This document shows positions 19,450 through 22,221 of a DNA stretch of 30,649 nt, piece by piece. Made by a program: the position numbers and the translations under genes. The first letter of the stretch is position 1; each line of letters opens with the position of its first letter. Origin of the DNA: an uncultured Nannocystaceae bacterium (GTDB lineage Bacteria; Myxococcota_A; Polyangia; Nannocystales; Nannocystaceae); NCBI GenBank assembly GCA_964626165.1, contig CAZVEM010000010.1, forward strand, positions 1-30,649, given 5' to 3'. The notes below the pieces were generated by a model. It was not told the origin of the DNA. It saw nothing but the letters and a program-made list of their open reading frames with translations, and did not search any database.

Positions 19450-22221
19450 ATGTCCGAAGGTCGAAGTCGCAAGATCCCCGTCACCGAGCGCCAATTCCTC
19501 TGGGTTCAAGACGACGACAAGGGTGAAGTCGTCCTCCACGTCGGACCGACGATGGTGTCACCGACGGCCGCTGATCGCGTCGTCGTCGACGACGGTGACG
19601 GTGGCTTTCGTGAAGATGTCAGCGGCCAACCCCAGAAGATGATCGAAGTCGGCGACAACCAGTACGCCGTCCTCTTTAATCCCCTTGTCGAGAACGACGG
19701 CGGGACCAATGGCCGCTTCAAGGCCGGGCGCAATGAAGCTCGCCTCCTGCAAAACGGCACGCGCTCGATGATCCCTGGGCCGTGCTTTTTCTATCTCCGA
19801 CCCGGTCAGCGCGTCGAGGTTCGCGACGCGCACGAGCTCGCAAGTAACCAGTATCTGATCGTCAAGGTCTACGGCGACGTCGACACGCAGGCCCCCTATC
19901 ACGAGGTGACGGCGCGCTCAGCTCACATCGTTGCGGCGACCGACGAGAACGCCCACGACGGTGATAACGGCCAGGATCTCGCGTCGGTGCAGCTCCGCCG
20001 CGGTCAGCTGATCGTCATTCGCGGCCTCGACACTCAGTTCTACATTCCGCCGACGGGCGTCGACATCGTGCCCGATACTTCCCTGGACGAGTCCGGTGCG
20101 GCGCTCGGTGCCGCACAAGCGCGGGCGCTGCTCGCCCAGTTCGGTGACGACCACGACGAGGGGACCCAAGTACGGGGCGCGCCACGTCGTCAGCTTGCCG
20201 ATGGCTTTGTCGACCAAAGCGCGCGTGCTCGTCATCGCAAGATGCCAAGCGCTCCAGCTCCCGCCGGCGCTCCGGCGGCGATGGTTGGCGCGGCGACAGG
20301 ACGCGCCGAAGAGCCGGTCATGCAGCAGCTCAGTGCGCCGGCTCCATCGCCTTCGGATCTCGTGTCCAACTTGGCGACGCGCGCCGCGCTGGAGTCTCAG
20401 GCACGCCAGGCCCGTTTGGTTCGCAACGCAGTGGTGCTTGGTGAAAAGGAGTACTGCGTCATCGTCGATGCCGACGGCAAACGCCAGATCAGGGTCGGTC
20501 CTGCCCGTGTCTTTCCCGGTCCCTACGACACCTTCATGGCGGTTGGGTCACGCAACCGGATCTACGACGCCTATGAGCTGCTTCCACAGCGTGCGCTCTG
20601 GATCCGCGTGATTTCACCGATCGCACGCGAGGAGATGGCCCGCAAGTTACCTCGCGGCATCGCGCTTGACCGTGAGCAGTACTACCCCGGCGACGAGCTC
20701 TTGGTCACCGGCGTGTCGACCTTCTTCGTCCCCTTCAATGAGATCGAGGTCCTCTCTCCCGATACCGGCCAAGCTGTGGTGGGTAACGACCACGGTCGCG
20801 TCTTTATCGAGGCGATCGGCATCGACCAAAAGAGCGGCATTTATGTTCGCGATCTCGCAACCGGTGAAGTTCGCCTGATCCGCGGCAAGCTCAGCTACCT
20901 CGTCGATCCGCGCAAGGAAGTTCAGATCACCCGAACCGTGCAGCCCGAGGAGTGGAATTTGTGGATCGCTGCGAACGAGCCCCACAAGGTCACGCGCCAG
21001 GCCGTGACGACGCCGTGGGCGCTCTCCGTGGTCGTGCCCAGCAACACGGCGATTGAAGTTACGTCAGCCAACGCGCGCCGCGTGGCCGAAGGTCCCTGCG
21101 TTACGCTGCTTGGCTACGAGGAGACCCTGACGGCGATTCACCTGTCGACGGGGATGCCAAAGAACGACGACTCCGTGCGCACCACCGTGTTCCTGAGAAC
21201 ACTGGGCAACCAGGTTCGAGACACGATCGTCGTGGAGACGGCGGACTTTGTGCAAGTGGCCGTCCATGTCAGCTACTCGGTGACCTTTGATCCTGCACTG
21301 CGGGAGCGCTGGTTCAACCACCCCAACTACGTGCAGTACATCTGCGATCACCTGCGCTCGATCGTGCGAAGTCGCTGCCGCGGCCTGTCACTGTCAACCC
21401 TGTGGCCGCAAATTCCTGCGGTCGTGCGCGACACGATCCTCGGAGAGAAGGGCGCGGACGGTGCGAGACCGGGTCGAACCTTCTCCGACAACGGTAGCTG
21501 CGTCACCGAGGTGGAGGTCTTGCGAGCGGAGATCGAGGACGAAGAAGTCGCCGAGCTCATGCACAAGGTGCAGACACAGAGCGTCAAGCTCACAATCGGC
21601 GATCGACAAGCACAAGAGGAACTCGTTTCTGCGCGGCTCCGCGCTGGGATCGATGATGAGCGGCGCAAGCTCAACGAGCAGGCCCGGACCTCCGACGCGC
21701 GGCTCGCCGAGCTCGCTCGCAAGATCGCTCACGAGGCTGAGTTGGCGGGACTCAAGGATCTCGAGACCGTCGCCGCCGAGCGGCAGTCCCTGACGGATCG
21801 GCGGCTCGCCGACGCCGTTGGAGCCGAGCTCCAACGAGGTGCCGCACGTCATCGCGCAGAGGTCGAGAGTCTTCGAGAGCTCGCCGCGGCCAAGGCCGCC
21901 GCGCAGCGCGAGACCGATGCGGCGATGTTGGAGGCGCGCAGCAAGATCGCTGCGTTGGACGAGGCACTGATCCGGGCGCGTTCCGCAGCGACGGTCGCGG
22001 AATCGCAGGCGATTCAGGCGGGATTGGTCGAGGCGCTCACCGCTCTCGGCGACAAGCTGCTGCTTGGCGATGTCGCCAAGAACATGAACCTCGTCAGCCT
22101 CGTTCAGGGCAAGGACGTCGGCACGATCCTCGAGGACGTGCTCGGCGGGACCAAAGTGATTGGCACCCTCCGAGAGATGCAGGACAAGTGGGGCAAGTCC
22201 TCCGACGCCAGTCCGGAGTAG
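19450..22221 (+). CDS. Major vault protein (MVP) homolog, full length (about 923 aa)
   Basis: Several blocks align to vertebrate MVP. [27 protein letters not shown] matches the MVP repeat NYCVILDPVG...[36 protein letters not shown] matches [79 protein letters not shown] matches [53 protein letters not shown], which is the shoulder region. A roughly 200-aa Ala/Glu/Arg-rich coiled coil matches the cap-helix, with ...[29 protein letters not shown] at the end. The N-terminal MVP-repeat-like [24 protein letters not shown] is present. I chose ATG 19450; GTG 19426 is also possible. Confidence 0.85.
   Translation: [923 protein letters not shown]

Follow-up and report, generated by a model that had tools for sequence, protein, structure and literature searches.

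A full-length bacterial homolog of the major vault protein, with seven predicted repeats, on a contig of an uncultured Nannocystaceae bacterium

Reviews still call vaults exclusive to eukaryotes (PMC11855390, PMC9778704). Whether a bacterium encodes the major vault protein (MVP) of the vault shell over its full length, and what such a protein would build, is the question raised by an open reading frame (ORF) on contig CAZVEM010000010.1 of an uncultured Nannocystaceae bacterium (assembly GCA_964626165.1). The window analysed is a stretch of 30,649 nucleotides (positions 1 to 30,649 of the contig, forward strand), to which all coordinates refer. The ORF is located on the + strand and runs uninterrupted from an ATG at 19450, or from a GTG at 19426, to a stop codon at 22219-22221. 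The ATG form (19450..22221) comprises 923 residues plus the stop, and this start is favoured by the consensus N-terminus of a 50-ortholog alignment; residue numbering counts from it, and the coordinates of all sub-features were verified by translation. The identical protein is recorded in an NCBI assembly and in a Logan assembly of run SRR26247405. An earlier note on this DNA had proposed a full-length MVP homolog in a bacterial genome, and the results presented here bear this out: the gene does encode, over its full length, a true bacterial relative of MVP, which is another member of a family reported from sequence since 2013 and not a discovery.

Hidden Markov model (HMM) searches place the ORF in the MVP family. 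Pfam MVP_shoulder (PF11978) matches residues 587-697 with 66.3 bits (cut-off 25), covering positions 3-118 of its 118-position profile, and Vault_3 matches residues 529-579 with 31.7 bits (cut-off 28.8); Vault_4 (residues 455-486) and Vault_2 (residues 64-122) fall just under their cut-offs, and no NCBIfam model matches the protein. A phmmer search against all PDB chains returned MVPs as its only significant matches, with residues 328-867 aligned to rat MVP 274-814 (E 3.1e-23). This alignment takes in the ETAD shoulder motif, part of the pair of similar shoulder segments that had been quoted in the earlier note. A profile built from the orthologs matches rat MVP with an E-value of 6.5e-31. The identity between the protein and eukaryotic MVP is about 18-21%.

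Structure prediction with AlphaFold (AF2) points the same way. A first run on 51 close orthologs gave a mean predicted local distance difference test score (pLDDT) of 55 and was confident in the shoulder and cap helix only, leaving the repeats unresolved. The second run, on a diverse alignment of 96 sequences with representatives down to about 27% identity, gave a mean pLDDT of 82.1 and a predicted template modelling score (pTM) of 0.62, with values above 90 over residues 10-160, 180-210 and 320-700. When the PDB was searched with this second model by Foldseek, full-length MVP chains of human, rabbit and rat came first, with alignments of about 930-1020 columns and E-values of 2.5e-36 to 2e-29. 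They were followed by the murine R1-R7 crystal structures (E about 1e-14, target-normalised template modelling score 0.51-0.54) and, in third rank, by cage proteins of the SPFH type, for example flotillin, erlin, prohibitin, HflK/C and stomatin (E 7e-7 and weaker). The large global root-mean-square deviation from full-length MVPs is expected of a model that is a long flexible rod when compared with a chain bent in a shell. The protein thus shows tandem repeats N-terminal to a shoulder and a full-length, colinear similarity to solved MVP structures, and since HMM, profile and predicted-structure tests agree across repeats, shoulder and cap helix, its membership of the MVP family is, on sequence and model evidence, essentially certain. 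The TolA/colicin-uptake label that some cyanobacterial MVP homologs have been given was considered and rejected: the TolA family is absent from the Pfam and NCBIfam matches of the protein, and with a highest 19-residue Kyte-Doolittle mean of 1.39 no transmembrane segment is predicted. The protein is probably soluble and cytoplasmic.

The gene is also at home in its genome. The window has a G+C content of 62-73% and is about 87% coding under the gene set used, and codon-position GC is uniform among its genes: the values for the MVP-homolog ORF are 0.70/0.45/0.76, those of the neighbouring genes 0.63-0.70/0.45-0.54/0.76-0.81, so that the agreement with the host in GC and third-position GC claimed earlier holds. 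The genes of bacterial type are single unbroken ORFs, among them those for two DegT aminotransferases, a reprolysin-like peptidase, an FHA protein, a fused E1 dehydrogenase, a GAF protein, FTHFS (whose ORF covers positions 3-556 of a 556-position profile with no interruption), an enoyl-CoA hydratase, a cytochrome c and a metallo-beta-lactamase-fold protein. The contig is bacterial and most likely from the Myxococcota (class Polyangia). Because of the dense coding, the unbroken bacterial-type genes and the codon-position GC common to them, eukaryotic contamination is excluded, as the earlier note had argued; the orthologs in cultured isolates described below agree with this.

Relatives of the protein are widespread. 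A species scan (one genome per GTDB species) found them encoded in 111 stretches, 79 of which were kept as loci, and HMMER over 1.84 billion cluster representatives returned 969 clusters (at 50% identity) at E <=1e-3 and 484 at E <=1e-30. The relatives of the species scan fall into one tier of 50-67% identity and one of 37-41% (Nannocystis, Labilithrix, Bradymonadia and others), no copy in a species-representative genome exceeding 67%. The closest ones, at 57-67%, belong to Polyangium, Byssovorax, Minicystis and other Polyangia/Myxococcota, and carry the labels 'Major vault protein shoulder domain-containing' (UniRef) or 'major vault protein' (JGI). Many Polyangia genomes encode orthologs of 53-67% identity, among them genomes of cultured isolates, for instance Minicystis rosea DSM 24000 and Polyangium fumosum DSM 14668, and complete isolate chromosomes; a few metagenome-assembled genomes (MAGs) with relatives are labelled Planctomycetota or Thermoanaerobaculia. 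Two MAGs encode two MVP paralogs each, JALOQB01/Prado144 (57% and 38% identity, loci L035 and L074) and JAVFAO01/BF4_93 (53% and 50%, loci L042 and L061). These pairs recall the two MVP copies of Plesiocystis and the MVP-alpha/beta pair of Dictyostelium (PMC3762200).

The statement in the earlier note that only a few bacterial homologs had been noticed is therefore outdated, both by these counts and by the literature. Daly et al. described homologs in Corallococcus and Plesiocystis in 2013 and predicted them to fold and dock like MVP (PMC3762200), Sokolskyi analysed homologs from Myxococcales, Cytophagales and Oscillatoriales in 2019 (10.1101/872010), a 2023 preprint added phage copies of MVP (10.1101/2023.11.10.566534), and prokaryotic MVP homologs have now entered the debate on the origin of the vault (Nat Microbiol 2026, PMC12962969). 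Myxobacterial homologs figure, in silico, in the literature of each of these years. The companion statement, that none has been characterised, stands: no experimental work on any native bacterial MVP or vault was found in a literature search whose coverage of subscription journals is incomplete.

The bacterial sequences sampled include 258 that rat MVP matches, and to each of these it scores only 57-118 bits; in a rough neighbour-joining tree it is set apart from 96 bacterial sequences by a branch of 0.435, a value that measures distance only and not placement, as rat is the sole eukaryote and the rooting was imposed. Given these low scores against every bacterial group sampled and the long rat branch, a recent transfer from a eukaryote is excluded. 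Of the origins that the earlier note wished to separate by a phylogeny, ancient and transferred, these data bear on recent transfer; a rat-rooted tree with one eukaryote is compatible with ancient transfer in either direction.

The architecture of the protein was compared with that of rat MVP, unit by unit. Repeat units were cut from the strand pattern of the model and from recurring sequence motifs. The rat sequence 274-814 was read from the phmmer alignment, and all 13 named residues of the human NAD+ pocket agree with that fragment; the sequence used for residues 1-273 agrees over its entire length with PDB chains 4hl8_A and 7pkz_A (about 640 bits). For rat we presume the customary domain boundaries, with repeats R1-R9, the shoulder, a cap helix at 647-802 and the cap ring from about 803. 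An internal-repeat analysis by hhalign was weak on the shallow alignment of 51 orthologs, and it was the alignment of 96 sequences that resolved the repeats.

On this basis the N-terminal region of this protein can be divided into seven putative repeat units, U1 to U7, all encoded on the + strand. The R1-like U1 (19462..19629, residues 5-60) is modelled with pLDDT above 90, aligns with rat R1 (hhalign 75%) and with U4 (93%) and U6 (92%), and is the most conserved block among the orthologs (95-99% conservation). U2 (19630..19815, residues 61-122) is R2-like, with hhalign support of 68% to rat R2 and the common motifs hY..l.NP and F.L.PG. U3 (19816..20082, residues 123-211) is a unit of the R3/R7 type whose internal loop is long; the motif G(Q/D)..i.G...YIP..vevV is common to it and rat R3, and it aligns with U5 (79%). 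The following four units correspond one by one to the last four rat repeats: U4 (20416..20583, residues 323-378) to R6 (hhalign 94%, and the phmmer alignment), U5 (20584..20805, residues 379-452) to R7 (87%, with 90% to R3), U6 (20806..21012, residues 453-521) to R8 (97%, and the sub-threshold Vault_4 match) and U7 (21013..21207, residues 522-586) to R9 (98%, and the Vault_3 match). Further links between units, U6 with U7 (82%) and U2 with U3 (61%), were found by hhalign on the diverse alignment.

The repeats are followed by the SPFH-like shoulder domain (21208..21540, residues 587-697) and by a cap-helix region (21541..22107, residues 698-886), which is aligned to the rat cap helix and for which helices are predicted at residues 698-854 and 858-886, in agreement with the cap helix proposed earlier. 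The first of these helices is 157 residues long, compared with about 156 in rat between the boundaries that we presume. The C-terminal tail (22108..22218, residues 887-923) is the positional counterpart of the rat cap-ring region, the boundary of which is likewise presumed, and the rat sequence used in the comparison ended at residue 814; the first part of the tail is conserved, and its last 20 residues or so are variable. Invariant blocks among the orthologs are U1, the repeats, the shoulder and the C-terminus.

From the sequence and the model we infer seven MVP repeats compared with nine in rat, one two-repeat pair between R2 and R6 being missing; U3 joins U4, the equivalent of R6, directly in most of the family and via an insertion in this protein. 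The claim that the ORF covers the whole architecture thus stands for repeats, shoulder and cap helix, all of which are present, and fails for the number of repeats, the vertebrate series R1-R9 not being found. We regard the count of seven as a variant feature and not as grounds for exclusion from the MVP family, because repeat number varies in other prokaryotic homologs, with five repeats in those of the Asgard archaea (PMC12962969).

Between U3 and U4, the protein carries a subfamily-specific insertion of 111 residues (20083..20415, +, residues 212-322), which appears to consist of a disordered Ala/Pro/Ser-rich linker (A 24%, P 8%, S 7% over the insertion) and a conserved helix. It is the low-complexity segment that the earlier note had placed at about residues 230-330. 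In the second model, residues 214-220 and 232-296 are the only mid-protein stretches with pLDDT below 50. Among the 51 orthologs the insertion ranges from 55 to 173 residues; most of the wider family has about 6 at the same place, where a consensus ...FYIPPTGxEVVPD leads straight into VRxAVTLExLEYC...; about one third of the sampled family sequences, the clade of this protein among them, have 95-174 extra residues there. Within the insertion lies the motif [VI]DQ[SA]ARxRxR (20209..20238, +, residues 254-263), in which R259 and R261 are found in all 51 sequences and Q256 in 50. The conserved helix spans residues 303-325, with R311, A313, E315, A318, R322, L323 and R325. The count of seven repeats and this conserved motif are modest new details.

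The ligands NAD+, ADP and ADP-ribose are bound by human MVP at a site between neighbouring subunits, behind a 'keyhole loop' (PMC12280208; 10.64898/2026.05.01.722283). The equivalent loop of this protein, LSTGMPK in U7 (21142-21162, +), contains K571, which is invariant. When the named human pocket residues were mapped onto the 96-sequence family, K506 was found kept as K571 (96/96) and D521 replaced by a conserved N587 (91/96); the loop residue P505, which is outside the 13 named, corresponds to P570 (89/96). Not conserved across the family are R437, R504, R507, P508, H509, R511, L517, F522, W545, P565 and K573, of which P565 is kept as P625 in this protein. The loop itself is conserved, but the ligand specificity of the human pocket cannot, from these alignments, be transferred.

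Stand-alone is the best description of this gene. Of 14 window genes (9567-29424) that were tested as neighbours, not one is found again beside MVP in any of the 79 loci, and clustering of the flanking ORFs of 80 loci showed no neighbour common beyond the genus level, only a Polyangium synteny that includes, for instance, an upstream MutS-like gene. Ser/Thr kinases do recur near MVP loci, but are abundant in the phylum. Scans of the window with Rfam and for tRNAs gave no match, and a promoter and terminator scan gave nothing beyond shuffle expectation.

What the protein would build is suggested by its relatives. The eukaryotic vault is a closed barrel of 78 subunits, made up of two half-vaults of 39-fold symmetry. 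MVP alone suffices for self-assembly of the vault shell, and SPFH proteins form domed cages (10.1101/2023.11.10.566534, PMC13100048, PMC12280208). By analogy, subunits would join side by side through shoulder and cap helix and give a homo-oligomeric cage in the shape of a dome, and the conserved N-terminal repeat might dock two such domes into a closed, vault-like shell. This shell would be shorter than the eukaryotic one, since each subunit is without one two-repeat pair. The insertion would decorate the barrel wall in every subunit, its invariant Arg-rich motif might be where a partner or a polyanion docks, and any cargo would be encoded elsewhere, because the gene stands alone without a conserved neighbour. 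We put the probability that the protein forms a cage of some kind at about 0.6; that this cage would be a closed shell of two halves is a tentative proposal, to which we would give a little less than an even chance. Unlikely, in our estimate, is the most elaborate version, in which a true closed, shorter vault of seven-repeat subunits exists in the bacterial cytoplasm and the disordered wall loop with its invariant motif recruits cargo or nucleic acid, as a built-in substitute for TEP1, vault RNA and PARP4.

Several points weigh against assembly of this kind. It is suggested by homology, at an identity to eukaryotic MVP that is low, and the residue-level alignment of U1 with R1 is unreliable, so that the residues of the waist and of the lateral interface are not mappable. 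Two missing repeats, together with an insertion of 55-173 residues in the barrel wall, could alter or prevent the packing of a closed shell. The hydrophobic periodicity of the cap helix is no better than that of shuffled sequences for this protein and for rat MVP alike, and so does not tell the two readings apart. Just 3 of the 13 named NAD+-pocket positions are kept (K571, N587 as substitute for D521, and P625), and neither a vault RNA (Rfam) nor a TROVE/TEP1, PARP or vWA domain was found in the window, its neighbouring ORFs included.

The alternative that survives best is a membrane-apposed half-cage of the SPFH type, in the manner of HflK/C, flotillin, prohibitin or erlin, which would surround or arrange a piece of the inner membrane instead of forming a free closed vault of two halves. 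An SPFH fold with a C-terminal oligomerising helix, the hallmark of these proteins, is indeed predicted here. The protein, however, has no transmembrane or hydrophobic anchor, and Pfam Band_7 (PF01145) is absent from its matches up to an E-value of 1. Where SPFH proteins carry their membrane anchor, be it a transmembrane helix, a hairpin or a lipidated hydrophobic segment, it has about 475 residues of MVP repeats, the 586 residues preceding the SPFH domain being made up of these repeats and the insertion. Its structural matches to MVP are also far stronger than those to SPFH proteins (E 1e-36 versus 1e-6). We therefore hold a half-cage to be rather unlikely.

More doubtful still is a protein that has kept the MVP fold and acts as a monomer or small oligomer, either as a non-assembling scaffold or as a nucleotide-binding, sequestering protein, as Sokolskyi proposed for bacterial MVP-like proteins (10.1101/872010). 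The near-invariance of K571, P570 and N587 points to a functional site, conserved in the family, where repeat 9 meets the shoulder, and nucleotide pockets were predicted in this region by the same preprint. The human pocket, however, forms between two adjacent subunits (PMC12280208) and so presupposes lateral assembly, and most of the basic residues that line it are not conserved in the family. A conserved, solvent-exposed single helix of 157 residues would, moreover, be hard to explain without bundling.

A phage-derived protein or a component of anti-phage defence is very improbable. MVP homologs have been reported in two gut phages (10.1101/2023.11.10.566534), but the protein has no PADLOC or PHROGs match, the window has no prophage or defence-island context, and the gene neighbourhood is not conserved. 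A scan of 2.9 million viral contigs gave a single match, located at a contig edge beside ORFs without Pfam match. This predicted viral contig, IMG/VR UViG_3300031673_000059 (54 kb), encodes an MVP relative of 49% identity (5001-7838 of locus L081) at its very end, downstream of six ORFs with no Pfam match; the relative may be phage cargo or host flank. Least credible of all is an origin by eukaryotic contamination or by a recent transfer from a eukaryote to a bacterium, an origin suggested by the fact that MVP is best known from eukaryotes and once held possible for bacterial homologs by Daly et al. (PMC3762200), but contradicted by the dense bacterial gene context, the codon-position GC, the orthologs on 111 species-representative stretches and the distance of rat MVP described above.

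Some other genes of the window deserve mention. Directly upstream of the MVP homolog lies a gene for a 638-residue homolog of Castor/Pollux-type ion channels (17348-19264, +), with a Castor_Poll_mid match of 90 bits and TrkA/RCK domains. Castor/Pollux channels are another family best known from eukaryotes, in this case plants; both this channel and FTHFS are found beside MVP in this genome only, as judged from the 79 loci. A small RRM_1 protein with a charged N-terminal extension (22303-22857, -; 64.6 bits) is encoded convergently, 81 bp past the MVP stop. It was considered as a partner in a vault-style ribonucleoprotein and rejected, as it adjoins MVP in 0 of the 79 loci and its adjacency is coincidental. 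The FHA-domain protein (7427-9517, +) has a very GC-rich, low-complexity stretch (72.7% over 8001-9000), which gives a sub-threshold match to Nucleoporin_FG repeats, and a single ORF of 841 residues (9567-12092, +) unites both E1 parts of a 2-oxoacid dehydrogenase, alpha (E1_dh) and beta (Transket_pyr, Transketolase_C). The ORFs at 13625-14875 (-) and 14643-16331 (+), one with a Big_5 domain and the other without Pfam match, both have a coding-like GC pattern and overlap at their 5' ends by about 230 bp; their true starts are therefore probably further in.

What vaults do has been asked for about 40 years without a settled answer. That question is not opened by this gene, as myxobacterial sequences of its kind have been known since 2013. 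The present analysis sharpens an experimental target: a stand-alone gene, widespread in Polyangia and present in cultured isolates (Polyangium, Minicystis), that encodes a predicted seven-repeat barrel, a cap helix of eukaryotic length and a strongly conserved Arg motif within an insertion otherwise predicted to be disordered. A bacterial vault, if demonstrated, would add a new class to the protein compartments of bacteria and provide a simple model in which to study vaults, and a closed vault in Polyangia would, if it exists, offer a genetically tractable prokaryotic model for both vault function and vault origin.

Compared with eukaryotic MVP (rat, human and rabbit; PDB 4V60, 4HL8, 7PKZ, 9BW5, 9Z4W), the protein has the same order of modules, namely repeats, an SPFH-like shoulder, a cap helix of about 156 residues in the eukaryotic proteins, and a C-terminal region. 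U4-U7 correspond one-to-one to R6-R9 and U1/U2 to R1/R2, and the keyhole loop LS(T/A)GxPK is common to both. It differs in having seven repeats instead of nine, a 111-residue insertion between repeats 3 and 4, an overall identity of about 18-21%, mostly changed NAD+-pocket residues, and a window that lacks a vault RNA, TEP1 or PARP4 context. From the SPFH/Band 7 cage proteins (HflK/C, flotillin, prohibitin, erlin, stomatin and QmcA) it is set apart by the lack of a membrane anchor and of a Band_7 match, and by the stack of seven repeats N-terminal to its SPFH domain. The MVP homologs of Asgard archaea are likewise prokaryotic, with a cap helix, a shoulder and a reduced set of repeats, and closed cups have been predicted, not shown, for them (PMC12962969); they are reported with five repeats, and half of their number cluster with the MVPs of eukaryotes, whereas the present protein has seven and belongs to a large bacterial radiation distant from rat. 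Its nearest counterparts are the bacterial homologs described earlier, from Corallococcus coralloides (H8MNI3), Plesiocystis pacifica (A6FXM1 and A6FXE2), Enhygromyxa salina, Saprospira and Microscilla (PMC3762200; 10.1101/872010). The myxobacterial ones are the same kind of protein from the same phylum and, like this one, known as sequences only; the likeness was drawn via database orthologs, such as those of Polyangium spumosum, P. sorediatum and Minicystis rosea, which are again the same kind of protein. Set against these earlier homologs, the protein of this window belongs to a subfamily with a long insertion at the junction of repeats 3 and 4.

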